Assembly (NCBI GenBank): GCA_965212005.1
Contig: OZ243038.1
Span: forward strand, 2,193,432 to 2,257,431
Length of the DNA: 64,000 nucleotides
Reading direction: 5' to 3'
Origin: Candidatus Porifericomitaceae bacterium
GTDB taxonomy: Bacteria > Pseudomonadota > Gammaproteobacteria > Porifericomitales > Porifericomitaceae
Part shown: positions 4,839 to 17,592 of the stretch, one piece after another
Layout: each line of letters opens with the position of its first letter
Position numbering within the stretch: position 1 is the stretch's first letter
Translations under genes and position numbers: made by a program
The notes under the pieces: model-generated
The model's input: the letters and a program-made list of their open reading frames with translations, nothing else
Databases searched by the model: none
What the model was told of the DNA's origin: nothing

Positions 4839-5400
4839 TGAACCCCAAAATTTGGATAGTAGTTTAAGGTGTAGTTTAGTCTACATGAGGAACTACACAG
4901 AGGACAAAACGAAAGAAATACTCTCCTGGGCGGAAAGCGCGGGCTGCCTTGGCGGTGACCCGTGGAGATGGCACGAGCGCCGAGTTGGCACAGAAGTTCG
5001 GAGTGCACCCCAATAGGATTACCCAGTGGAAACGCGAAGCGCTCGATGGCATGGAGGATACCTTCACCGAGACGGCAAGCGCCGCCCCGAGCCGGAGGCG
5101 GACATCAAAACGCTGCAGGCCAAGGTCGGCTAACTCATTGTAGAGCGGTATTTTTTAGCCAGGGCCTTCGAGTGATCTTCCCCCTGTTGGGTAGCCATTC
5201 AAAGAGAGACAAAATATCTTATCCTGCCGCCTCTGCCTCGAACACAGCCGGCACCAGATAATGGAGTGAACTATGTGGTCGGGTGCCAGCCTGCATAAGC
5301 TCAGAAACATAGGGCATTTTTCGGGCCAGTAGCGGTGCCAATCCACGTTGACAATGGCGAAGAGCGGCAGTAGCTTTGAATAGTCGAAGGCTGTTGTTGG
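4839..5400 (+). mobile_element. IS3-family insertion sequence remnant (orfA with frameshifts, fragment of orfB integrase core; non-functional)
   Basis: Starts TGAACCCC (IS3-type IRL tip). Translation fragments AELAQKFGVHPNRITQWKREAL (HTH), EADIKTLQAKVG and LIVERYFLARA (leucine-zipper/frameshift region), VPIHVDNGEE (DDE core-like), in different frames. Confidence 0.6.
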
Positions 5401-5872: not shown

Positions 5873-5948
5873 TGTATCACCGCCGCTGGCGCCGTCTGTG
5901 CGGCTGGTTGTGCCATTGGGCCATGTTGGCGCCATTAGGGGTTGGCGG

Positions 5949-6395
5949 ATGAACATTATAAAAAAACGATTGTTGCTGGCCATACTTGCCATATTTGTAT
6001 TGTTTGGAACAGCGTCCTGCAGTTATCCCTTTTACATGAAAGCATCAGGTAGTTTGGATCATTCAATTTTGTTCCAGTTTTTCAAAGAGGAAAATGATGA
6101 AAAGCCATCGAAATTCGATATTACTGTGTTTACAGTTTATGGACAGACAGCCGATGCTCAATGGATCCCCATATGGCGTCTCATTGGCGGCCAGACTCTG
6201 AGTAGTATTGAGTACGGTATAAATATACAGTATAAGGGGCTTACTGAAATCGTGCCGCATAAACCACTCGCAAAGGGTAAGCAATATGAAGCGGTTGCGG
6301 CAGGTTCAGTATGGCCTAAGCCAGGGTTGGGACACGCGAGAATTGATTTCTTTTTTGATGAAGGAGGCAATTTGATTCAGGGCAGTATCAAGTAA
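5949..6395 (+). CDS. Small secreted/lipoprotein, cassette copy 1 (148 aa; MNIIKKRLLLAILAIFVLFGTASC...)
   Basis: Signal peptide with Cys at +1 region (..FGTASC). AGGGG RBS 9 nt upstream of ATG. Four paralogous copies in tandem. Confidence 0.65.
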   Translation: MNIIKKRLLLAILAIFVLFGTASCSYPFYMKASGSLDHSILFQFFKEENDEKPSKFDITVFTVYGQTADAQWIPIWRLIGGQTLSSIEYGINIQYKGLTEIVPHKPLAKGKQYEAVAAGSVWPKPGLGHARIDFFFDEGGNLIQGSIK

Positions 6396-6445
6396 TCATT
6401 ATGCCTCCAAGAACCGGCTGGTTGTTACATCTGCATGTTTAAGGA

Positions 6446-6958
6446 TTGCCCTCAGCGTTCCCTCCGGCATATCCCCGGGATGGTTGGGAATGGTCGTGTA
6501 TTTATAATGCAGCCGCTGCTTCGCGACGGGCAAGCGGCAGAGCTTTAACTGCGGATGAAATAGAGTTGCTAGAGGGGGAGGGGGTCAGTTTCGATGGGTT
6601 AGATGTTTCGAAGGTGCGGATTATCAACGGAAAATATATTCCGTTTCAGAATCGTCCCATGGCTCCGGATGGCTATATCTACTGGCCGGGTGAGTGCGGT
6701 AACTTAGCATCATGCGGTGGAGTAGGTACGGCAAGAACTTTCATCCATGAAATGACACATGTTTGGCAACACCAGCAGGGTGTCAACGTGCTCGGTAGAG
6801 GGTTCCTGCTCCAGGCTGCAAGGGGTTTGAGCCTCGGTCTTTTTGATCCATACAGCCTTAAGGGATACGATCCCAACGGTCCCAACCTACCCTTCAACAT
6901 CGAGCAGGAGGCCGAAGTAAAGAGACTCGAGTATATAAGATGGAAGAAATCTCAATGA
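6446..6958 (+). CDS. HExxH metallopeptidase-motif protein, DUF4157-like (HEMTHVWQHQ), cassette copy 1
   Basis: GKYIPFQNRPMAPDGYIYWPG...TFIHEMTHVWQHQ matches the DUF4157 pattern (HExxHvxQ) from memory. TTG start; no signal peptide. Confidence 0.55.
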   Translation: MPSAFPPAYPRDGWEWSCIYNAAAASRRASGRALTADEIELLEGEGVSFDGLDVSKVRIINGKYIPFQNRPMAPDGYIYWPGECGNLASCGGVGTARTFIHEMTHVWQHQQGVNVLGRGFLLQAARGLSLGLFDPYSLKGYDPNGPNLPFNIEQEAEVKRLEYIRWKKSQ

Positions 6959-6985
6959 TGAAAACAATATCGTAGGGGTTGGCGG

Positions 6986-7423
6986 ATGAACATTATAAAA
7001 AAACGATTGTTGCTGGCCATACTTGCCATATTTGTATTGTTTGGAGCGTCCTGCAGTTATTCATTTTCCATGAAAGTATCAGGTAATTTGGATCATTCAA
7101 TTTTGTTCCAGTTTTTCAAAGAGGAAAATGATGAAAAGCCATCGAAATTCGATATTACTGGGTTTACAGTTTATAGACATACAGCCGATGCTCAATGGAT
7201 CGTCATATGGGATCTAATTGGCAGCCAGACTCTGAGCAGTATTGAGTACGGTATAAAGTATAAGGGGCTTACTGAAATCGTGCCGCATAAACCACTCGCA
7301 AAGGGTAAGCAATATGAAGCGATTGCGGAAGGTTCAGTCTGGCCTCGAGGGCCGACGGGGAGCGCGGGAATTGTTTTCTTTTTTGATGAAGGAGGCAATT
7401 TGATTCAGGGCTGGATCAAGTAA
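6986..7423 (+). CDS. Small secreted/lipoprotein, cassette copy 2 (145 aa)
   Basis: Paralog of 5949-6395 with substitutions clustered in the C-terminal third. Confidence 0.65.
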   Translation: MNIIKKRLLLAILAIFVLFGASCSYSFSMKVSGNLDHSILFQFFKEENDEKPSKFDITGFTVYRHTADAQWIVIWDLIGSQTLSSIEYGIKYKGLTEIVPHKPLAKGKQYEAIAEGSVWPRGPTGSAGIVFFFDEGGNLIQGWIK

Positions 7424-7473
7424 TCATTATGCTTCCAAGAACCGGCTGGTTGTTACATCTGCATGTTTAAGGA

Positions 7474-7989
7474 TTGCCCTCAGCGTTCCCTCCGGCATAT
7501 CCCCGGGATGGTTGGGAATGGTCGTGTATTTATAATGCAGCCGCTGCTTCGCGACGGGCAAGCGGCAGAGCTTTAACTGCGGATGAAGTAAAGGTGGCAA
7601 AGGAGGTCTTTGACAATAAGATCGATTATTCGAAGGTGCGGATTATCGACGGAAAATATATTCCGTTTCAGAATCGTCCCATGGCTCCGGATGGCTATAT
7701 CTACTGGCCGGGTGAGTGCGGTAACTTAGCATCATGCGGTGAAGTAGATACGGCAGACACTTTCATCCATGAAATGACACATGTTTGGCAACACCAGCAT
7801 GGTGTCAACGTGCTCGGTAGAGGGTTCCTGCTCCAGGCTGCAAGGGGTTTGAGCCTCGGTCTTTTTGATCCATACAGCCTTAAGGGATACGATTCCAAAA
7901 AAGCCTTCAGCTCCTACAATATCGAGCAGCAGGGCCAAATAGCGGTAGGCATCTATCGTGGCCATTATCCAAACAACATCAACTACTGA
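7474..7989 (+). CDS. HExxH/DUF4157-like protein, cassette copy 2 (distinct N-linker and C-terminus)
   Basis: Same HEMTHVWQHQ core. Differs from copy 1 at ADEVKVAKEVFDNKIDYS and in the C-terminal 35 aa. Confidence 0.55.
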   Translation: MPSAFPPAYPRDGWEWSCIYNAAAASRRASGRALTADEVKVAKEVFDNKIDYSKVRIIDGKYIPFQNRPMAPDGYIYWPGECGNLASCGEVDTADTFIHEMTHVWQHQHGVNVLGRGFLLQAARGLSLGLFDPYSLKGYDSKKAFSSYNIEQQGQIAVGIYRGHYPNNINY

Positions 7990-8005
7990 TGCTAGGGGTT
8001 GGCGG

Positions 8006-8443
8006 ATGAACATCATAAAAAAACGATTGTTGCTGGCCATACTTACCATATTTGTATTGTTTGGAACAGCGTCCTGCAGTTATCCCTTTTACATGAAAGC
8101 ATCAGGTAGCTTGGATCATTCAATTTTGTTCCGGTTTTTCAAAGAGAAAAATGATGAAAAGCCATCGAAATTCAAGATTAATATATTTATAGTTCAGGAA
8201 CAGACAGCCGATGCTCAATGGATCGTCATATGGCATCTACAAGGCAGCCAGACTCTGAGCAGTATTGAGTACGGTATAAAGTATAAGGGGCTTGCTGAAA
8301 TCGTGCCGCATAAACCACTCGCAAAGGGTAAGCAATATCGAGCATATGCAAATGGTTCAGTATGGCCTGGAAGGGGGGGGAGCGCGGTAACTGATTTCTT
8401 TTTTGATGAAGGAGGCAATTTGATTCAGGGCAGTATCAAGTAA
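8006..8443 (+). CDS. Small secreted/lipoprotein, cassette copy 3 (145 aa)
   Basis: MNIIKKRLLLAILTIFVLFGTASC... The ORF frame is open from 7958, but a conserved ATG/RBS lies at 8006. Confidence 0.65.
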   Translation: MNIIKKRLLLAILTIFVLFGTASCSYPFYMKASGSLDHSILFRFFKEKNDEKPSKFKINIFIVQEQTADAQWIVIWHLQGSQTLSSIEYGIKYKGLAEIVPHKPLAKGKQYRAYANGSVWPGRGGSAVTDFFFDEGGNLIQGSIK

Positions 8444-8472
8444 TCATTATGCCGCCAAGAACCGGCTGGTTA

Positions 8473-9034
8473 TTACATCTGCATGTTTAAGGATTGCCCT
8501 CAGCGTTCCCTCCGGCATATCCCCGGGATGGTTGGGAATGGTCGTGTATTTACAATGCAGCCGCTGCTTCGCGACGGGCAAGCGGCAGAGCTTTAACTGC
8601 GGATGAAGTGCGGCAGAGCTTTAACTGCGGATGAAATAGAGTTGCTAGAGGGGGAGGGGGTCAGTTTCGATGGGTTAGATGTTTCGAAGGTGCGGATTAT
8701 CAACGGAAAATATATTCCGTTTCAGAATCGTCCCATGGCTCCGGATGGCTATATCTACTGGCCGGGTGAGTGCGGTAACTTAGCATCATGCGGTGGAGTA
8801 GGTACGGCAAGAACTTTCATCCATGAAATGACACATGTTTGGCAACACCAGCAGGGTGTCAACGTGCTCGGTAGAGGGTTCCTGCTCCATGCTGCAAGGG
8901 TTTTGAGCCGCGATCTTTTTGATCCATACAGCCTTAAACACTACGATCCCAACGGTCCCAACCTACCCTTCAACATCGAGCAGGAGGCCCAAGTAAAGGT
9001 CCTCGAGTATATAAGATGGAAGGAATCTCAATGA
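8473..9034 (+). pseudogene. HExxH/DUF4157-like gene, cassette copy 3, N-terminal frame broken by a 28-bp internal duplication (possible restart at ATG 8603)
   Basis: gcggcagagctttaactgcggatgaa is duplicated at 8575-8632, shifting the conserved TTG-start leader out of frame. Downstream 143 codons are intact. Confidence 0.55.
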
Positions 9035-9061
9035 TGAAAACAATATCGTAGGGGTTGGCGG

Positions 9062-9499
9062 ATGAATATTATAAAAAAACGATTGTTGCTGGCCATACTT
9101 GCCATATTTGTATTGTTTGGAGCGTCCTGCAGTTATTCATTTTCCATGAAAGTATCAGGTAATTTGGATCATTCAATTTTGTTCCAGTTTTTCAAAGAGG
9201 AAAATGATGAAAAGCCATCGAAATTCGATATTACTGGGTTTACAGTTTATAGACATACAGCCGATGCTCAATGGATCGTCATATGGGATCTAATTGGCAG
9301 CCAGACTCTGAGCAGTATTGAGTACGGTATAAAGTATAAGGGGCTTACTGAGATCGTGCCGCATAAACCACTCGCAAAAGGTAAGCAATATGATGTTGTT
9401 GTGCACGGTTCAGTCTGGCCTCGAGGGCCGACGGGGGGCACGGGATTTGTTTTCTTTTTTGATGAAGGAGGCAATTTTATTCAGGGCTGGATCAAGTAA
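9062..9499 (+). CDS. Small secreted/lipoprotein, cassette copy 4 (145 aa)
   Basis: Nearly identical to copy 2. Confidence 0.65.
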   Translation: MNIIKKRLLLAILAIFVLFGASCSYSFSMKVSGNLDHSILFQFFKEENDEKPSKFDITGFTVYRHTADAQWIVIWDLIGSQTLSSIEYGIKYKGLTEIVPHKPLAKGKQYDVVVHGSVWPRGPTGGTGFVFFFDEGGNFIQGWIK

Positions 9500-9549
9500 T
9501 CATTATGCTTCCAAGAACCGGCTGGTTGTTACATCTGCATGTTTAAGGA

Positions 9550-9861
9550 TTGCCCTCAGCGTTCCCTCCGGCATATCCCCGGGATGGTTGGGAATGGTCG
9601 TGTATTTACAAGGATACGCCTAATTATAACCTCGTCGTTATAACAGAAGATGACGGTTACGCGGCGAGGATGTTCTACGTTAAGCCAGCGTTTGGAATTA
9701 AGGAAGGCACATAAGTATATTCTGGTCAAGTCATTGGCACATATCAAAATATAGGAGACAGAAAAGGGCATAGTGGGATCACAGAGCACGTTCATGTAGA
9801 AATTCGGCTCGAAGGTAAGTTATTATATCCCACAGACATCATTCCGATTCCTGAAAACTAG
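9550..9861 (+). pseudogene. Truncated 4th HExxH/DUF4157-like gene (first 20 codons) fused to a frameshifted M23 (LytM) peptidase 3' fragment
   Basis: LPSAFPPAYPRDGWEWSCIY then ...NLVVITEDDGYAARMFYVKPAFGIKEGT*. After a +1 shift: YSGQVIGTYQNIGDRKGHSGITEHVHVEIRLEGKLLYP (M23 HxH/GxxGxxGxT-like C-terminus). Ends 1 nt before the ATG at 9863. Confidence 0.6.
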
Positions 9862-9862
9862 C

Positions 9863-10516
9863 ATGCGCAGTTTAAGATCTTTGCTCCGATTGCTCGCCAG
9901 CAGCGTGATCATCATTCATTCCGCTTTTACGTGTGCTGCCGGCATGACTGATTGTGATGCTTTGGAACTGATTTCAGGTCACTCTGATTACAATTCGCTA
10001 GTCTGTGCTGGTGTTCAGAAAGTGGAAGAGCGAAAATATGAGGAAGCGATTTCTCTATTTGAGCAGGCCCTGGCTGTTCCGCTACGTGAGTGGTCTAACT
10101 TCCTGTTATTACCCCGGCTGGCTTTGGCACATCATCTGTCCGGCTCCGGACAAAAAGCGGAAAGCGTTTTGCTGAAAGCTGAGTTGACGTTGTCGGTATT
10201 TTTGGGTTTGATGACATGCGAACAGACGGAGACGGGTTACGTTGTTCGTCGAGCGTATGAAGATTATCTCACTGGCCAGGTGGGCAATGAGGTTGCAGCA
10301 ATTATGTGTGGCAATGAATATCATTACGTATCTGAGCGGGATACACTTGAACAAGTGCTGCTGGAAGCGAAGTTGATAGAGAATTATTTTGAGATCAAGC
10401 GGCAGATCGGCTTATCTGAAGGCGATGACTCCCAGGCTGCAGTGAGGCGTGGATTGCACGTCGGTGTCGGGGCAGGCCGTTATTGTTATAACAGGCGGCA
10501 TCATGGACAGGGTTAG
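9863..10516 (+). CDS. Secreted 217-aa protein, standalone paralog of the ankyrin protein N-terminal domain (copy 1)
   Basis: Signal peptide. Shares blocks DCDAxEL, YNSLVCxG, KYEEAIxxFEQAL, LLPRLALAHHLSGS, TLSVF, NYFEIKRQIG with the ankyrin protein N-domain. Confidence 0.6.
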   Translation: MRSLRSLLRLLASSVIIIHSAFTCAAGMTDCDALELISGHSDYNSLVCAGVQKVEERKYEEAISLFEQALAVPLREWSNFLLLPRLALAHHLSGSGQKAESVLLKAELTLSVFLGLMTCEQTETGYVVRRAYEDYLTGQVGNEVAAIMCGNEYHYVSERDTLEQVLLEAKLIENYFEIKRQIGLSEGDDSQAAVRRGLHVGVGAGRYCYNRRHHGQG

Positions 10517-10783
10517 TCTTCGATACAAAGATGCTCCATCGGATCGACTCACCAGTATAACCACGCGGAGGGGTTACGCGGTGGGGCAGCTTTACGTTAC
10601 TGCGGCACCTGGCATCCAGTCTGGAGTAAGCGCAGGGGCTGGTCAAGTTATTAGCACACGTCAAGGGCGGGGAGGCCGGCATCCTGGGAGCACAGAACGC
10701 GTTCCTGCAGAGCTTGCACATAACAGTCAGGTATGTGGAGGCCGGGGCGCTGATTTCGCTTCCGTAAGTAGCAGCCTGTACAA

Positions 10784-13549
10784 ATGAAGTCCTTGCTCTG
10801 GTGGCTGGTCGGCAGCGTTATTATTATTCATTCGGCTTTCGCGCATGCTGATGATGATAAGTTTGATTGTGATGCCTGGGAGCTTTTCGGGACAAGATTT
10901 GAGGGCTACGATTATTACAATTCGCTAGTCTGTTCTGGTATTAAGAACATGGAAAAGGGGCAATATGAGGAAGCCGTTGTCCAATTTGAGGAGGCCCTGA
11001 CTGTTCCGCTAAATGAATGGCCTAACTTTATGTTATTGCCCAGACTGGCTTTGGCCTATCATCTGTCCGGTTCCAGAGAAAAGGCAAAAAGAGTTCTGCT
11101 AAAAGCGAAGCGGACGCTGTCGGTATTTACTGGTTTGATTAAATGCGAAGTAAGAGATATCCCCACTTGGAGCGATTATATTATTATGCGCCAGGCAAAT
11201 GGTATTGCCCTCTCCTCCCGCGACGGAATGTGTGGTGAGATATATTTTCCATATTATGAGAGTAAGTCTCTTGGTGCAATGCGATATGATGCGAGGGTTG
11301 TAAAGAATTATTTTGAGATCAAGCGGCAGATGGGCTTTTCCACCCCCCTTCATGAGACGGCGCAAGAGGGGCGCACAGCAGTCATCCAGACGCTGATTGA
11401 GGCAGGTGCAGACGTCAATGTGGAAGATAGCGACGGCGAGACCCCGCTTCATAGGGCGGCCCGGGAAGGCCACACAGCAGTCGTCCAGACACTGATTCGG
11501 GCAGGTGCGGACGTCAATGCGAAGGATGGCGAGAGGAAGACCCCACTTCATGGGGCGGCGCGGGAAGGCGACACAGCAGTTATCCAGATGCTGATTGAGG
11601 CAGGTGCGGACGTCCATGCAAAGTACAGAGACGGTTCCCCGCTGCATGAGGCGGCATACAAAGGCCGCACAGAAGCCATCCGTATGCTGATTAAGGCAGG
11701 TGCGGACGTCAATGCAAGGACGTCGACTGACTACACCTCGCTTCATGGGGCGGCGTACAAGGGCTACCCGGAAACCGTCCGTATGCTGATTGAAGCAGGC
11801 GCAGACGTCAATGCGGAGGATATTTTATACGGTGAGACCCCGCTTCGTTTGGCGGCAAAAAAAGAACAAACAGAAGTCATCCGCATGCTGATTGAGGCAG
11901 GCGCGGACGTCAACATGGAGGCAATAGACGGGAGCACCTGGACTCCGCTTTACTGGGCGGTACAGGGGGGGCACATAGAAGTCATCAAGGTGCTGATTGA
12001 GGCAGGCGCGGATGTCAATGCAAGGTCCAGATACGGCGAGCCCCCGCTTCATGAGGCGGTCCGGGAAGGCCTGTCAGAAGGTGTTTCTGTGTTGATTGGG
12101 GCAGGCGCGGATGTCAATGCGAGAGATGGCCGCGGCGAGACCCCGCTTCATAATGCGGTATTGAGAGGCCGGTCAGAAAGTGTTTCTACGTTGATTGAGG
12201 CAGGTGCGGACGTCAATGCGAAGAATAACGAAGGCTGGACTCCGCTTTACTGGGCGGTACAGGAGGGGCGCATAGAAGTCATCCGCATGCTGATTGAGGC
12301 AGGCGCGGACGTCAACATGGAGGCAATAGACGGGAGCAACTGGACTTCGCTTTACTGGGCGGTACAGGAGGGGCACATAGAAGTCATCAAAGTGCTGATT
12401 GAGGCAGGCGTGGATGTCAATGCGACGTCCAGATACGGCGAGCCCCCGCTTCATGAGGCGGTCCGGGAAGGCCTGTCAGAAGGTGTTTTTGTGTTGATTG
12501 GGGCAGGTGCGGATGTCAATGCGAAAGACAGCCTCGGCGAGACCCCGCTTCGTTTGGCGGCAAAAACAGAACAAACAGAAGTCATCCGCATGCTGATTGA
12601 GGCAGGCGCAGACGTCAACATGGAGGCAATAGACGGGAGCAACTGGACTCCGCTTTACTGGGCGGTACAGGAGGGGGACATAGAAGCCATCCGCATGCTG
12701 ATTGAGGCAGGCGCGGATGTCAACGCAAGGTCCAGATACGGCGAGCCCCCGCTTCATGAGGCGGCCCGGGAAGGCCACAGAGCAGTCGTCCAGGCACTGA
12801 TTCGGGCAGGCGTGGATGTCAATGCGAAAGATAGCGGCGGCGAGACCCCGCTTCATGAGGTGGCACTGTCAGGCGATCCAGAACTTGTTGATGTGCTGAT
12901 TGAGGCAGGCGCGGATGTCAATGCAAGGTCCAGATACGGTGAGACCCCGCTTCATGAAGCGGTCCAGGAAGGCCACACAGCAGTCGTCCAGGCACTGATT
13001 CGGGCAGGCGTGGATGTGAATGCGAAAGATAGCGGTGGCGAGACCCTGCTTCATGAGGCGGCACTGTCTGGCGATCCAGAACTTGTTGATGTGCTGATTG
13101 AGGCAGGCGCGGATGTCAATGCGAAAGGTAGCAGCGGCGAGCCCCTGCTTCATGAGGCGGCCCGGGAAGGCCACACAGCAGTCGTCCGGGCACTGATTCG
13201 GGCAGGCGTGGATGTGAATGCGAAAGATAGCGGCGGCGAGACCCCGCTTCATGAGGCGGCATGGTCAGGCCTGTCAGAAGGTGTTTCTACGTTGATTGAG
13301 GCAGGTGCGGACGTCAATGCGAAGGATAACGAAGGCTGGACTCCGCTTCACAGGGCGGCACAGTCAGGCGAGCCAGAACTTGTTGATGTGCTGGTTGCCG
13401 CAGGCGCAGACGTGAATGCAAAGGATGCAGACGGAGACACGCCGTTGGATAAGACAAAATCCAAAATGGATCAAATGGATCGAAAAAATGAAGAATACGA
13501 TAAGTATCGGACAGTCGTTGACTTGCTGGATAGGGCAGGCGCAAGATAA
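10784..13549 (+). CDS. Secreted ankyrin-repeat protein, 921 aa (signal peptide + ~170-aa Cys-containing N-domain + ~21 ANK repeats + Lys/Asp-rich tail), copy 1
   Basis: Signal peptide ends IIIHSAFA|HADD. Repeats are 33 aa each, e.g. TPLHxAAxEGHTAVVQALIRAGADVNAKDxxGE. Confidence 0.85.
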   Translation: MKSLLWWLVGSVIIIHSAFAHADDDKFDCDAWELFGTRFEGYDYYNSLVCSGIKNMEKGQYEEAVVQFEEALTVPLNEWPNFMLLPRLALAYHLSGSREKAKRVLLKAKRTLSVFTGLIKCEVRDIPTWSDYIIMRQANGIALSSRDGMCGEIYFPYYESKSLGAMRYDARVVKNYFEIKRQMGFSTPLHETAQEGRTAVIQTLIEAGADVNVEDSDGETPLHRAAREGHTAVVQTLIRAGADVNAKDGERKTPLHGAAREGDTAVIQMLIEAGADVHAKYRDGSPLHEAAYKGRTEAIRMLIKAGADVNARTSTDYTSLHGAAYKGYPETVRMLIEAGADVNAEDILYGETPLRLAAKKEQTEVIRMLIEAGADVNMEAIDGSTWTPLYWAVQGGHIEVIKVLIEAGADVNARSRYGEPPLHEAVREGLSEGVSVLIGAGADVNARDGRGETPLHNAVLRGRSESVSTLIEAGADVNAKNNEGWTPLYWAVQEGRIEVIRMLIEAGADVNMEAIDGSNWTSLYWAVQEGHIEVIKVLIEAGVDVNATSRYGEPPLHEAVREGLSEGVFVLIGAGADVNAKDSLGETPLRLAAKTEQTEVIRMLIEAGADVNMEAIDGSNWTPLYWAVQEGDIEAIRMLIEAGADVNARSRYGEPPLHEAAREGHRAVVQALIRAGVDVNAKDSGGETPLHEVALSGDPELVDVLIEAGADVNARSRYGETPLHEAVQEGHTAVVQALIRAGVDVNAKDSGGETLLHEAALSGDPELVDVLIEAGADVNAKGSSGEPLLHEAAREGHTAVVRALIRAGVDVNAKDSGGETPLHEAAWSGLSEGVSTLIEAGADVNAKDNEGWTPLHRAAQSGEPELVDVLVAAGADVNAKDADGDTPLDKTKSKMDQMDRKNEEYDKYRTVVDLLDRAGAR

Positions 13550-13768
13550 TTGGGACTCGTCAGTGCCAGCCGGATAAGAACGTCCGGTCATGGATATGTC
13601 CTAACCGCCTTCGATGTCCGGAAAAACTGTTTTGCTTGCAAAGTCAAAGCGAGCAACGTTGGTTGCTAGCCGTTACGGCTAGATCGGCGCCAATCCACGT
13701 TGACAATGGCGAAGAGCGGCAGTAACTTTGAATAGTAGAAGGCTTTATGCCGATTCCTGAAAACTAGC

Positions 13769-14422
13769 ATGCGCAGTTCAAGATATTTGCTCCGATTGCT
13801 CGTCGGCAGCGTGATCATCATTCATTCCGCTTTTACGTGTGCTGCCGGCATGACTGATTGTGATGCTTTGGAACTGATTTCAGGTCACTCTGATTACAAT
13901 TCGCTAGTCTGTGCTGGTGTTCAGAAAGTGGAAGAGCGAAAATATGAGGAAGCGATTTCTCTATTTGAGCAGGCCCTGGCTGTTCCGCTACGTGAGTGGT
14001 CTAACTTCCTGTTATTACCCCGGCTGGCTTTGGCACATCATCTGTCCGGCTCCGGACAAAAAGCGGAAAGCGTTTTGCTGAAAGCTGAGTTGACGTTGTC
14101 GGTATTTGTGGGTTTGATGACATGCGAACAGACGGAGACGGGTTACGTTGTTCGTCGAGCGTATGAAGATTATCTCACTGGCCAGGTGGGCAATGAGGTT
14201 GCAGCAATTATGTGTGGCAATGAATATCATTACGTATCTGAGCGGGATACACTTGAACAAGTGCTGCTGGAAGCGAAGTTGATAGAGAATTATTTTGAGA
14301 TCAAGCGGCAGATCGGCTTATCTGAAGGCGATGACTCCCAGGCTGCAGTGAGGCGTGGATTGCACGTCGGTGTCGGGGCAGGCCGTTATTGTTATAACAG
14401 GCGGCATCATGGACAGGGTTAG
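13769..14422 (+). CDS. Secreted 217-aa N-domain paralog, copy 2
   Basis: About 98% identical to 9863-10516. Confidence 0.6.
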   Translation: MRSSRYLLRLLVGSVIIIHSAFTCAAGMTDCDALELISGHSDYNSLVCAGVQKVEERKYEEAISLFEQALAVPLREWSNFLLLPRLALAHHLSGSGQKAESVLLKAELTLSVFVGLMTCEQTETGYVVRRAYEDYLTGQVGNEVAAIMCGNEYHYVSERDTLEQVLLEAKLIENYFEIKRQIGLSEGDDSQAAVRRGLHVGVGAGRYCYNRRHHGQG

Positions 14423-14689
14423 TCTTCGATACAAAGATGCTCCATCTAATCGGCTCACCAGTATAACCACGCGGGGGGGTTACGCGGTGGGGCAGCGTAA
14501 CGTTACTGCGACGCCTGGAACTCAGTCTGGAGTAAGCGCAGGGGCTGGTCAAGTTATTAGCACACGTCAAGAGTGGGGAGGCCGGCATCCTGGGAGCACA
14601 GAACGCGTTCCTGCAGAGCTTGCACATAACAGTCAGGTATGTGGAGGCCGGGGCGCTGATTTCGCTTCCGTAAGTGGCAGCCTGTACAA

Positions 14690-16456
14690 ATGAAGTCCTT
14701 GCTCTGGTGGCTGGTCGGCAGCGTTATTATTATTCATTCGGCTTTCGCGCATGCTGATGATAAGTTGGATTGTGATGCCTGGGAGCTTTACGGGACAGGC
14801 TATCATTATTACAATTCGCTAGTCTGTTCTGGTATTAAGAACATGGAAAAGGGGCAATATGAGGAAGCCATTGTCCAATTTGAGGAGGCTCTGACTATTT
14901 GGATACATGAATGGCCTAACTTTATGTTATTGCCCAGACTGGCTTTGGCCTATCATCTGTCCGGTTCCAGAGAAAAGGCAAAAAGAGTTCTGCTAAAAGC
15001 GAAGCGGACGCTGTCGATACTTACTGGTTTGATTAAATGCGAAGAAAGAGATACCACCACTTTGAGAGATTATATTATTATGCGCCAGGCGAATGGTATT
15101 GCCCTCTCTGGAGACGACGTAATGTGTGGTTCGGTATTATATTTTCCATATTATGAGAGTAAGTCTCTTGGTGCAATGCGATATGATGCGAGGATTGTAA
15201 AGAATTATTTTGAGATCAAGCGGCAGATGGGCTTTTCCACCCCCCTTCATGAGACGGCGCAAGAGGGGCGCACAGCAGTCATCCAGACGCTGATTGAGGC
15301 AGGTGCAGACGTCAATGCGGAAGATAGCGACGGCGAGACCCCGCTTCATAGGGCGGCCCGGGAAGGCCACACAGCAGTCGTCCAGGCACTGATTCGGGCA
15401 GGCGCGGACGTCAATGCGAAGGATGGCGAGAGGAAGACCCCACTTCATGGGGCGGCGCGGGAAGGCGACACAGCAGTTATCCAGATGCTGATTGAGGCAG
15501 GTGCGGACGTCAATGCAAAGTACAGAGACGGCGGCTCCCCGCTGCATGAGGCGGCATACAAAGGCCGCACAGAAGCCATCCGTATGCTGATTAAGGCAGG
15601 TGCGGACGTCAATGCAAGTACGTCGACTGACTACACCCCGCTTCATGGGGCGGTGTACAAGGGCTACCCGGAAATCATCCGTATGCTGATTGAAGCAGGC
15701 GCGGACGTCAATGCGGCGGAGCGTTACTACGGTGAGACCTCGCTTCGTTTGGCGGCAAAAAAAGAACGAACAGAAGTCATCCGCATGCTGATTGAGGCAG
15801 GCGCGGACGTCAACATGGAGGCAATAGACGGGAGCAACTGGACTCCGCTTTACTGGGCGGTACAGGAGGGGCACATAGAAGTCATCAAGGTGCTGATTGG
15901 GGCAGGTGCGGATGTCAATGCAAGGTCCAGATACGGTGAGCCCCCGCTTCATGGGGCGGTCCAGAAAGGCCTGTCAGAAGGTGTTTCTGTGTTGATTGGG
16001 GCAGGCGCGGATGTCAATGCGAAAGATAGCCGCGGCGAGACCCCGCTTTATGAGGCGGCATTGAGAGGCCGGTCAGAAGGTATTTCTACGTTGATTGGGG
16101 CAGGTGCGGACGTCAATGCGAAGAATAACGAAGGCTGGACTCCTCTTCACAGGGCGGCACAGTCATGGTGGTCAGGCCTGTCAAAAGGTGTTTCTACGTT
16201 GATTGGGGCAGGTGCGGACGTCAATGCGAAGGATAACGAAGGCTGGACTCCGCTTCACAGGGCGGCACTGTCAGGCGATCCAGAACTTGTTGATGTGCTG
16301 GTTGCCGCAGGCGCAGACGTGAATGCAAAGGATGCAGACGGAGACACGCCGTTGGATAAGACAAAATCCAAAATGGATCAAATGGATCGAAAAAATGAAG
16401 AATACGATAAGTATCGGACAGTCGTTGACTTGCTGGATAGGGCAGGCGCAAGATAA
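14690..16456 (+). CDS. Secreted ankyrin-repeat protein, 588 aa, copy 2 (in-frame loss of ~11 ANK repeats, mosaic)
   Basis: Same N-domain and C-tail. The middle repeats are absent relative to copies 1 and 3. Junction region AAQSWWSGLSKGVSTL. Confidence 0.8.
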   Translation: MKSLLWWLVGSVIIIHSAFAHADDKLDCDAWELYGTGYHYYNSLVCSGIKNMEKGQYEEAIVQFEEALTIWIHEWPNFMLLPRLALAYHLSGSREKAKRVLLKAKRTLSILTGLIKCEERDTTTLRDYIIMRQANGIALSGDDVMCGSVLYFPYYESKSLGAMRYDARIVKNYFEIKRQMGFSTPLHETAQEGRTAVIQTLIEAGADVNAEDSDGETPLHRAAREGHTAVVQALIRAGADVNAKDGERKTPLHGAAREGDTAVIQMLIEAGADVNAKYRDGGSPLHEAAYKGRTEAIRMLIKAGADVNASTSTDYTPLHGAVYKGYPEIIRMLIEAGADVNAAERYYGETSLRLAAKKERTEVIRMLIEAGADVNMEAIDGSNWTPLYWAVQEGHIEVIKVLIGAGADVNARSRYGEPPLHGAVQKGLSEGVSVLIGAGADVNAKDSRGETPLYEAALRGRSEGISTLIGAGADVNAKNNEGWTPLHRAAQSWWSGLSKGVSTLIGAGADVNAKDNEGWTPLHRAALSGDPELVDVLVAAGADVNAKDADGDTPLDKTKSKMDQMDRKNEEYDKYRTVVDLLDRAGAR

Positions 16457-16674
16457 TTGGGACTCGTCAGTGCCAGCCGGATGAGAACGTCCGGTCATGG
16501 ATATGTCCTAACCGCCTTCGATGTCCGGAAAAACTGTTTTGCTTGCAAAGTCAAGCGAGCAACGTTGGTTGCTAGCCGTTACGGCTAGATCGGCGCCAAT
16601 CCACGTTGACAATGGCGAAGAGCGGCAGTAGCTTTGCATAGTAGAAGGCTTTATGCCGATTCCTGAAAACTAGC

Positions 16675-17328
16675 ATGCGCAGTTTAAGATCTTTGCTCCG
16701 ATTGCTCGCCAGCAGCGTGATCATCATTCATTCCGCTTTTACGTGTGCTGCCGGCATGACTGATTGTGATGCTTTGGAACTGATTTCAGGTCACTCTGAT
16801 TACAATTCGCTAGTCTGTGCTGGTGTTCAGAAAGTGGAAGAGCGAAAATATGAGGAAGCGATTTCTCTATTTGAGCAGGCCCTGGCTGTTCCGCTACGTG
16901 AGTGGTCTAACTTCCTGTTATTACCCCGGCTGGCTTTGGTACATCATCTGTCCGGCTCCGGACAAAAAGCGGAAAGCGTTTTGCTGAAAGCTGAGTTGAC
17001 GTTGTCGGTATTTGTGGGTTTGATGACATGCGAACAGACGGAGACGGGTTACGTTGTTCGTCGAGCGTATGAAGATTATCTCACTGGCCAGGTGGGCAAT
17101 GAGGTTGCAGCAATTATGTGTGGCAATGAATATCATTACGTATCTGAGCGGGATACACTTGAACAAGTGCTGCTGGAAGCGAAGTTGATAGAGAATTATT
17201 TTGAGATCAAGCGGCAGATCGGCTTATCTGAAGGCGATGACTCCCAGGCTGCAGTGAGGCGTGGATTGCACGTCGGTGTCGGGGCAGGCCGTTATTGTTA
17301 TAACAGGCGGCATCATGGACAGGGTTAG
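16675..17328 (+). CDS. Secreted 217-aa N-domain paralog, copy 3
   Basis: About 99% identical to copy 1. Confidence 0.6.
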   Translation: MRSLRSLLRLLASSVIIIHSAFTCAAGMTDCDALELISGHSDYNSLVCAGVQKVEERKYEEAISLFEQALAVPLREWSNFLLLPRLALVHHLSGSGQKAESVLLKAELTLSVFVGLMTCEQTETGYVVRRAYEDYLTGQVGNEVAAIMCGNEYHYVSERDTLEQVLLEAKLIENYFEIKRQIGLSEGDDSQAAVRRGLHVGVGAGRYCYNRRHHGQG

Positions 17329-17592
17329 TCTTCGATACGGAGATGCTCCATCGGATCGGCTCACCAGTATAACCACGGGGGGATACGCGGTGGGGCAGCT
17401 TTACGTTACTGCGGCGCCTGGAACTCAGTCTGGAGTTAGCGCAGGGGCTGGTCAAGTTATTAGCACACGTCAAGAGCGGGGAGGCCGGCATCCTGGGAGC
17501 ACAGAACGCGTTCCTGCAGAGCTTGCACATAACAGTCAGGTATGTGGAGGCCGGGGCGCTGATTTCGCTTCCGTAAGTAGCAGCCTGTACAA

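Follow-up and report, generated by a model that had tools for sequence, protein, structure and literature searches.

A stretch of 64,000 nucleotides from the genome of a Candidatus Porifericomitaceae bacterium (contig OZ243038.1; hereafter the window) carries a tandem array in which genes for small lipoproteins alternate with open reading frames (ORFs) containing a HExxH motif. In our assessment this is probably an orphan array of Rhs C-terminal toxin tips (Rhs-CT) and immunity genes of the Tpe-Tpi family, which would serve as a bank of immunity proteins combined with a silent reserve of toxins. An earlier note, made from the letters of this DNA alone, had likened the array to orphan toxin/immunity cassettes, a view that is upheld here: the toxin is homologous to the C-terminal tip of Rhs proteins and has neither a delivery region nor a usable start, and the lipoprotein genes are intact.

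Repeat analysis of the window gives four direct-repeat units with a start-to-start spacing of 1020-1056 nt, and a 73-nt block at positions 5936, 6973, 7993 and 9049 is 97-100% identical from unit to unit. The lipoprotein starts (5949, 6986, 8006 and 9062) and the period of ~1.02-1.06 kb given in the earlier note were confirmed. The individual features are listed in Table 1.

Table 1. Features of the array and its surroundings in window coordinates, followed by loci sampled for members of the lipoprotein family
Feature	Position or locus	Strand	Basis or remark
Lipo1: intact lipoprotein, candidate immunity protein	5949..6395	+	ATG; lipobox LFGTASC; no toxin gene upstream
Leader: conserved non-coding 3' flank of immunity gene	6396..6504; also 7424-7532, 8444-8552, 9500-9609	+	98-100% identity between units
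Tox1: orphan Tpe/VgrG2b-Cter-type metallopeptidase toxin fragment, type a	6505..6958	+	6H56 E=1e-19; L001 homology from ~6505; HEMTH, NIEQE intact
Lipo2: intact lipoprotein, putative cognate immunity protein of Tox1	6986..7423	+	27 nt past Tox1 stop; identical to P0064; AlphaFold 2 (AF2) pLDDT 94, beta-sandwich
Tox2: orphan toxin fragment, type b, C-terminus ...YPNNINY	7533..7989	+	74% identity to L001/L002 C-terminal toxin regions vs 71% to Tox1
Lipo3: intact lipoprotein, putative cognate immunity protein of Tox2	8006..8443	+	Motifs FxVQEQT, WHL, YRA common to P0065/P0066
28-nt tandem duplication over S-G-R-A-L-T-A-D-E codons	8582-8609 / 8610-8637	+	Direct reading, unit alignment
Tox3: toxin domain, type a', detached from leader frame	8603..9034	+	94% identity to Tox1; equals database protein P0001
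Lipo4: intact lipoprotein, putative cognate immunity protein of Tox3	9062..9499	+	93% identity to Lipo2; P0067
Tox4: chimera, pseudogene	9610..9861	+	Leader fused in frame to C-terminal two thirds of Peptidase_M23; in-frame TAA 9712-9714
Island left junction and conserved AGGGG(N7)ATG ribosome-binding context of Lipo1	5936..5948	+	73-nt block begins at 5936; upstream DNA unrelated, high-GC
IS3-type transposase HTH fragment	4949..5143	+	PF01527 HTH_Tnp_1, 24.4 bits vs cutoff 24.1; ~0.8 kb upstream of island junction
217-aa protein, signal peptide, Cys-rich, TPR-like	9863..10516	+	Starts 1 nt past M23 fragment stop; weak TPR matches only
P0068	L084-86		Toxin homologue P0008 (224 aa) upstream, 7 nt away
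P0075	L087		Toxin upstream, 10 nt away
P0141	L092		Protein of at least 372 aa ending in toxin domain upstream, 3 nt away
P0097	L090/91		YD-repeat fragment joined to toxin C-terminus fragment upstream
P0085	L088/89		Toxin's last codons only upstream (…GGVYRNNID); member is a lipoprotein-TPR fusion

Toxin identity, carriers and gene order

The motif TFIHEMTHVWQHQ is common to the three mechanically called HExxH ORFs (6446-6958, 170 aa; 7474-7989, 171 aa; 8603-9034, 143 aa). When PDB sequences were searched with phmmer, the match was 6H56_A, the VgrG2b effector domain from Pseudomonas aeruginosa, with E=1e-19 and 74 bits, residues 29-161 of the query aligning with residues 96-226 of the chain. 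The block FIHEMTHVWQHQ.GVNVL is identical between the window toxin and 6H56, and tblastn gave 41% identity to vgrG2b of P. paraeruginosa (L004). Residues H101, E102, H105 and E153 are invariant across 60 relatives, and the HExxH motif with its downstream Glu (NIEQ) is kept in Tox1-3. Judged by sequence, these ORFs belong to the Tpe1/VgrG2b-Cter family of periplasmic metallopeptidase toxins. The match to 6H56 agrees with the earlier description of the HExxH protein as a zinc-peptidase-type module of polymorphic toxins. The same note had called the pair uncharacterised, which does not apply to the toxin, as its family has been studied experimentally: the C-terminal domain of VgrG2b acts in the periplasm as a toxin against bacteria and is inactivated by E936A (Wood et al. 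2019, PMC6899460), and the Tpe1-Tpi1 pair of A. baylyi belongs to the same family and kills from the periplasm as in P. aeruginosa (PMC6899460).

The assignment to DUF4157 made in the earlier note fared less well. In Pfam, PF13699 (DUF4157, now 'eCIS_core') gave no match at E<=1 for any window copy, where the note had anticipated a significant one, and the only match was DUF6782 at E~0.02, below cutoff. Scanned one by one, 34 of 60 relatives did match PF13699, all below the curated cutoff (best E=6.4e-4), and the VgrG2b-Cter family "is frequently annotated as DUF4157" (PMC6899460), so that a distant link stands. Membership of the window toxins was rejected on score, none of them reaching the gathering cutoff. 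What is shared with PF13699 is the HExxHxxQ zincin-type motif; unlike an N-terminal module, which the note had taken the domain for, it forms here a C-terminal toxin, the tip of Rhs or VgrG proteins. With NCBIfam and PADLOC, no significant family was obtained for either the toxins or the lipoproteins of the window.

The relatives closest to the toxins (60-74% identity) either form the C-terminal tip of a giant Rhs-type protein or are fragments of one. The full-length Rhs locus L001 encodes such a giant (at least 1947 aa; RHS_repeat E=3e-27), and the stop of its gene overlaps the start of a gene for a lipoprotein homologue. The C-terminus of the giant reads …NPLSFTDPSGFGL, a Gly/Ala-rich linker, AAAASREPRGRALTADEV…FIHETTHVLQYQHGVNVL…YPNNIDY*, and its toxin region, 74% identical to Tox2, is placed after the core end '...DPSGFGL'. 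Shorter fragments with the same C-terminal toxin region are found at L002/L003, the lipoprotein gene lying 17 nt further on. According to Pfam, L001, L005 and L052 combine SpvB, FG-GAP, TcdB_toxin_midN and RHS repeats, the architecture of a Tc-toxin 'BC'-like YD-repeat shell, and a small lipoprotein or secreted ORF follows each of these giant carriers (L001 1-5843, L005 79-6432, L052 115-6462). The VgrG2b/Tpe1 metallopeptidase is therefore also carried on Rhs/Tc-like proteins, a configuration that is not listed by Wood et al. 2019, and the giant carriers suggest an antibacterial use of Tc-like shells.

The genome scan returned at least 460 further toxin relatives, including VgrG fusions (L004 of P. 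paraeruginosa, 1069 aa; L071, 1140 aa). Many of them are stand-alone 'vgr related proteins' of ~152 aa in Sphingomonadales (L010-L083), usually with no lipoprotein or secreted ORF downstream. These taxa rarely have a type VI secretion system (T6SS) (Wood et al. 2019, PMC6899460), and this stand-alone branch may have a different role.

The gene order in these relatives defines the unit. Of the 5.8 billion entries covered by a word-index search, just three clusters were lipoproteins of this kind, one of them being the window's own protein and the other two leading to the contigs L001 and L002/L003; contigs were then sampled from progressively more distant members of the lipoprotein family (Table 1). 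The toxin or its 3' remnant lies 0-17 nt upstream of the lipoprotein gene in 7/7 distinct sampled loci (L001, L002/3, L084-86, L087, L092, L090/91 and L088/89), which supports a toxin-immunity relationship. The co-occurrence check proposed in the earlier note thus came out in favour of a recurring pair. The note had also read the unit as lipoprotein followed by HExxH protein; the order seen in L001-3, L084-87 and L092 is the reverse, and on the sequence evidence the natural module is a toxin tip followed by a lipoprotein. One of the sampled members, P0085 (L088 221-1822), is a protein of 533 aa with a lipoprotein immunity-like domain and a long TPR region.

Toxin fragments, lipoproteins and variation between the units

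The leader that precedes the toxin fragments also follows the lipoprotein gene of L001. Nucleotide homology to L001 starts at ~6505, ~27 nt before the RALTADE codons, and runs through the toxin and the lipoprotein gene and then across the whole ~110-nt leader, up to the end of the L001 contig; in L002 the shared part of the leader is limited to its first ~75 nt. As the homology is carried through the leader in L001, we take the leader to be non-coding DNA that natively flanks the immunity gene on its 3' side. In the mechanical ORFs the first ~20 codons are read-through of this flank of the preceding gene, and they have no match, in any frame, to the pre-toxin linkers of relatives; the possibility that the leader is a remnant of a Rhs pre-toxin linker was rejected on the same grounds. 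The 170-aa proteins described in the earlier note as cytoplasmic-looking do exist as ORFs of 170-171 aa with the motif, but they are fragments devoid of a start, their first ~20 codons belonging to the preceding 3' flank.

The sole start candidate of Tox1 and Tox2 is a TTG one codon past a TAA, and the AAGGA sequence directly abuts this TTG, leaving no usable Shine-Dalgarno spacing. In copy 3, the first copy of the 28-nt duplication ends in the Tox2-type GAAGT and the second in the Tox1-type GAAAT. The duplication frameshifts Tox3 and creates the ATG at 8603 that the source annotation uses as the start of P0001; lying at the RALTADE boundary, it is a recombination scar. In copy 4, the mechanical ORF (9550-9714) departs from the leader at 9609-9612, which is where the other units start to show Tpe-type homology, and continues into an M23 part (PF01551, 30.9 bits vs cutoff 28.7, profile positions 35-94 of 96). 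The last unit was noted earlier as truncated; its ORF is indeed short, but a leader-M23 chimera interrupted by a TAA is more than a truncation. Damage is restricted to the toxin fragments of copies 3 and 4, and all four lipoprotein ORFs are intact.

An alternative reading would have the units as active stand-alone effector-immunity pairs, with the ORFs translated from TTG or, in copy 3, from ATG, their products riding as non-covalent cargo on a secretion machine encoded elsewhere (e.g. a T6SS), the adjacent lipoproteins conferring immunity and the array amounting to an arsenal of several effectors. In fact, family members of 140-270 aa are common ('vgr related protein', cargo effectors; Wood et al. 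2019), the catalytic residues are intact in copies 1-3, and copy 3 has been called as a protein in the source annotation. We nevertheless regard such pairs as quite improbable, given the TTG one codon past a stop with its unusable spacing, the initial ~20 codons made of a non-coding flank that also lies 3' of the L001 immunity gene, the closest relatives being tips or fragments of Rhs-type giants, the visible breakage of copies 3 and 4, the absence of Tox1 and Tox2 from a collection of 15 billion proteins and the lack of T6SS genes in the window.

The lipoprotein genes present a different picture. Lipo1-4 (145-148 aa) have an ATG start in an AGGGG(N7) context, a basic MNIIKKR n-region, a hydrophobic core and a ...LFG(T)ASC lipobox with Ser at +2, in agreement with the earlier description of ~145-aa signal-peptide proteins with FGxASC. 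The gaps between toxin stop and lipoprotein ATG are 27, 16 and 27 nt. Cognate pairs were assigned by gene order, not by co-variation. P0065 and P0066, both encoded after b-type toxins, share local motifs with Lipo3, and only such motifs separate the types when the lipoproteins are compared with these two; identity over the whole length does not.

The lipoprotein family is sizeable. An exhaustive profile search of 1.84 billion representatives recovered 199 clusters at E<=1e-3 (89 of them at E<=1e-10), mostly of 135-150 aa and with a lipobox in 82 of the 150 members listed. No Pfam domain was found in any of the 199 clusters, a profile search of PDB gave nothing significant (NCAM FnIII E=0.12, Rap1a E~1), and a metagenome-contig scan for relatives produced 164 pattern matches and no relative.

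In the characterized system VgrG2b-Cter is neutralised through binding by the periplasmic protein PA0261, encoded immediately downstream, and the enterobacterial immunity homologues are outer-membrane lipoproteins (PMC6899460). The lipoprotein of the array occupies the position and the cell compartment of PA0261. A profile built from six lipoprotein sequences had no match among the ~70 ORFs downstream of toxins in the genome loci, PA0261-type proteins included. With 125 sequences, the profile matched, in L004, the PA0261 homologue (19.9 bits, E=1.7e-6 in the 70-sequence set; profile 49-122 vs residues 48-124) and, in L071, the lipoprotein adjacent to the VgrG fusion of Ralstonia (E=6.5e-6), and hhalign of the two families returned 63.6% probability (E=6.7e-5) over 91 co-linear columns. 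The AF2 models of Lipo2 (predicted local distance difference test, pLDDT, 94) and PA0261 (83.5) each contain a signal helix and nine β-strands at nearly identical positions, and both proteins are predicted to form a FnIII-like beta-sandwich with matching strand order. Overall, these comparisons make a remote kinship of the lipoproteins with the immunity protein PA0261 probable, albeit not proven; the unannotated, Pfam-less family would then be a cysteine-free remote branch of PA0261/Tpi, and it is the likely immunity partner of the toxin.

The alignment of the units reveals a mosaic in which leader and catalytic core are 98-100% identical and several patches only 50-70%. The variable patches comprise lipoprotein residues ~113-136 and ~56-82 (unit 3 differing in the latter), the toxin segment directly after RALTADE and the C-terminal ~35 toxin residues. 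The earlier note had placed most differences in the C-termini of the HExxH proteins and a linker; this holds for the toxin C-terminal segment, and the toxin N-terminal segment and two lipoprotein patches vary too. The array has a 2x2 structure, Tox1 and Tox3 (94%) and Lipo2 and Lipo4 (93%) being close and Lipo1 and Lipo3 only 82% identical. The former likenesses suggest that the latest duplication copied a Tox-then-Lipo segment, in line with a toxin-then-immunity unit. The ratio of nonsynonymous to synonymous substitution rates (dN/dS) is ~1 for the lipoproteins, 1.4-2.8 for the toxins and >1 in the variable patches; as the counts are small and the patches are possibly replaced segments, we do not claim positive selection.

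The same data bear on the possibility that the array is a functionless, decaying relic of a rhs locus that lost its main gene, perhaps by a deletion mediated by an insertion sequence (IS), with the lipoprotein genes drifting too. Such a relic would be consistent with the IS3 fragment upstream, with the left junction that cuts right before Lipo1 and leaves no toxin or rhs upstream, with the broken toxin copies 3 and 4, with a dN/dS of ~1 and with the lack of a recognised promoter. It is made unlikely by the lipoprotein genes, which are all full length, conserve ATG, ribosome-binding context and lipobox and escape the damage seen in the toxins, and whose differences cluster in two patches instead of being evenly spread; the ~100% identity of the toxin catalytic core between units points to recent duplication or gene conversion, not to long decay.

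Lipo1 and Lipo3, with either possible start, were not found in the 15-billion-protein collection, where Lipo2, Lipo4, Tox3 (from its ATG), MetK, AhcY and the 217-aa protein are present from the source 2.5-Mb contig. Differences in gene calling or assembly are a possible cause. In principle, the missing entries could reflect an assembly artefact, a collapsed or mis-joined repeat that makes a one- or two-unit locus appear as four units; this we consider very improbable indeed, since all four units differ in defined patches, the junctions are continuous and in register, and the window matches the 2.5-Mb contig.

Proposed function and genomic setting

In the reading as an orphan Rhs-CT/immunity array, the module would consist of a Rhs/YD-repeat C-terminal toxin domain, its cognate lipoprotein gene and the ~110-nt 3' flank, with four such modules joined head to tail. 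The lipoproteins would be exported, lipidated and probably anchored in the outer membrane (Ser at +2), facing the periplasm, where by analogy with PA0261 they could bind and neutralise incoming Tpe-type metallopeptidase variants. The toxin fragments would be silent, having lost the Rhs shell/VgrG/PAAR delivery part and any usable start. The array could thereby supply immunity to several variants of the toxin fired by neighbouring cells and, at the same time, hold a reserve of alternative tips. Recombination at the conserved RALTxDE-coding boundary, a site at which the copy-3 scar shows that recombination occurs, might transfer these tips to a full-length rhs gene located elsewhere in the genome. 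Delivery might rely on a T6SS, as it does for VgrG2b, or, as the closest carriers suggest, on a Tc-like/YD-shell route.

Several observations weigh against this interpretation. Tox1-3 may not be silent, since translation can start at TTG and an ATG is available in copy 3. Lipo1-4 contain no Cys apart from that of the lipobox, and the PA0261 family has conserved C60, C67, C135 and C151; moreover, the sequence similarity to PA0261 is weak and the FnIII-like fold very common. Unlike orphan Rhs and contact-dependent inhibition (CDI) modules, the units keep only ~10 codons before RALTxDE and no DPxGL core, so that recombination with a main gene would depend on the short RALTxDE region. The 64-kb window contains no full-length rhs, vgrG, PAAR or T6SS gene that would link the array to a delivery system, and a promoter/terminator scan found no convincing sigma-70 promoter on the + strand upstream of the lipoprotein genes. 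Finally, an overall dN/dS of ~1 fits relaxed constraint as well as diversifying selection. The same scan gave no convincing terminator, the only consensus matches lying on the minus strand and recurring in each unit.

A further reading, in our view rather doubtful, is that a Tc-like/YD-shell system, and not a T6SS spike, delivers the periplasm-acting metallopeptidase, with the array as its immunity and toxin reserve and the fixed leader end as a preferred site of cassette capture. The possibility of Tc-like delivery follows from the nearest full-length carriers being Tc 'BC'-like and accompanied by a lipoprotein gene. As to the capture site, toxins of two unrelated types (Tpe-type and M23) are joined at the 3' end of the leader (~6505; 9609-9612), which hints at a preferred cassette-capture site distinct from the VENN/DPxGL coding-motif junctions of CDI/Rhs orphans.

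The array (~0.46 GC, as compared to ~0.60 in the flanks) is the left part of a low-GC island (~5936-20400) located between a gene for an ElsL-like L,D-carboxypeptidase on one side and metK/ahcY/metF on the other. At 5936 the island adjoins core-genome DNA, cut exactly before Lipo1; the IS3 fragment further upstream may be connected with the loss of the preceding part, rhs or toxin. Neither a recombinase nor an integrase was noticed within the island.

The remainder of the island (9863-20349) holds a repeat family in three copies. In each copy a 217-aa protein (the genes of this type also starting at 13769 and 16675) is paired with an ankyrin-repeat protein of 588-921 aa that shows homology to the 217-aa protein over its first ~200 aa. 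The 217-aa genes all begin 1 nt past '...IPIPEN*', where an M23-peptidase toxin fragment ends. The repeat family probably represents a further orphan series of toxins and immunity proteins, with the 217-aa gene as candidate immunity gene. The 90%-identity cluster of the 217-aa protein (P0257) has five members on the source contig, including two 190-aa forms outside the window, which implies more cassette copies elsewhere in the genome. Outside the island, glnE is seemingly split: GlnE and GlnD_UR_UTase domains occur in each of two ORFs (32002-33582 and 33444-34886) that overlap and are read in different frames. A frameshift, an error of sequencing or the decay of glnE to a pseudogene could account for the split.

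Comparison with known systems

The finding fits the known framework of polymorphic toxins with orphan cassettes and does not call for a new category of system. The new points are modest: the Rhs/Tc-like carriers, the unannotated cysteine-free lipoprotein subfamily of ~200 clusters and the fixed non-coding junction used by two toxin types. Carriage on Rhs/Tc-like proteins adds to the range of the periplasmic VgrG2b/Tpe1 metallopeptidase. With its four natural toxin/immunity variants and their sharply localised differences, the array offers a specificity panel for mapping the toxin-immunity interface.

Compared to VgrG2b/PA0261 and Tpe1-Tpi1, the array has a homologous toxin, a small envelope-targeted ORF directly after the toxin gene and a predicted FnIII-like immunity fold. 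On the other hand, the domain in the window lacks a start and a VgrG/PAAR fusion and lies outside a T6SS locus, as judged within the 64-kb window. The PA0261 family has partly conserved cysteines, and its stability depends on disulfides and DsbA (PMC6899460); the lipoproteins of the array are marginally similar to PA0261 and lack these DsbA-dependent cysteines.

The Bacteroidales clusters of orphan immunity genes directed against non-self T6SS effectors (PMC12247911) differ from the array in that the window keeps toxin fragments between the immunity genes and shows no recombinase or integrase; both contain several intact immunity genes with no usable cognate toxin in a horizontally acquired island.

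The closest parallel comes from orphan CT/immunity modules, in which the toxin part lacks initiation signals and the immunity gene is expressed (Poole 2011, PMC3150448), and which carry the hallmarks described for orphan rhs-CT/rhsI and cdiA-CT/cdiI pairs (PMC3150448; Koskiniemi et al. 2014, PMC3967940; Jamet & Nassif 2015, PMC4436062). Unlike these, the array has no full-length rhs upstream within the window, and its toxins are variants of one family except for the M23 chimera. It resembles them in the tandem arrangement of toxin tips and immunity genes, the toxins lacking starts, the intact immunity genes, the homology running from boundary to boundary, the IS fragment nearby, the low GC and the mosaic variation.

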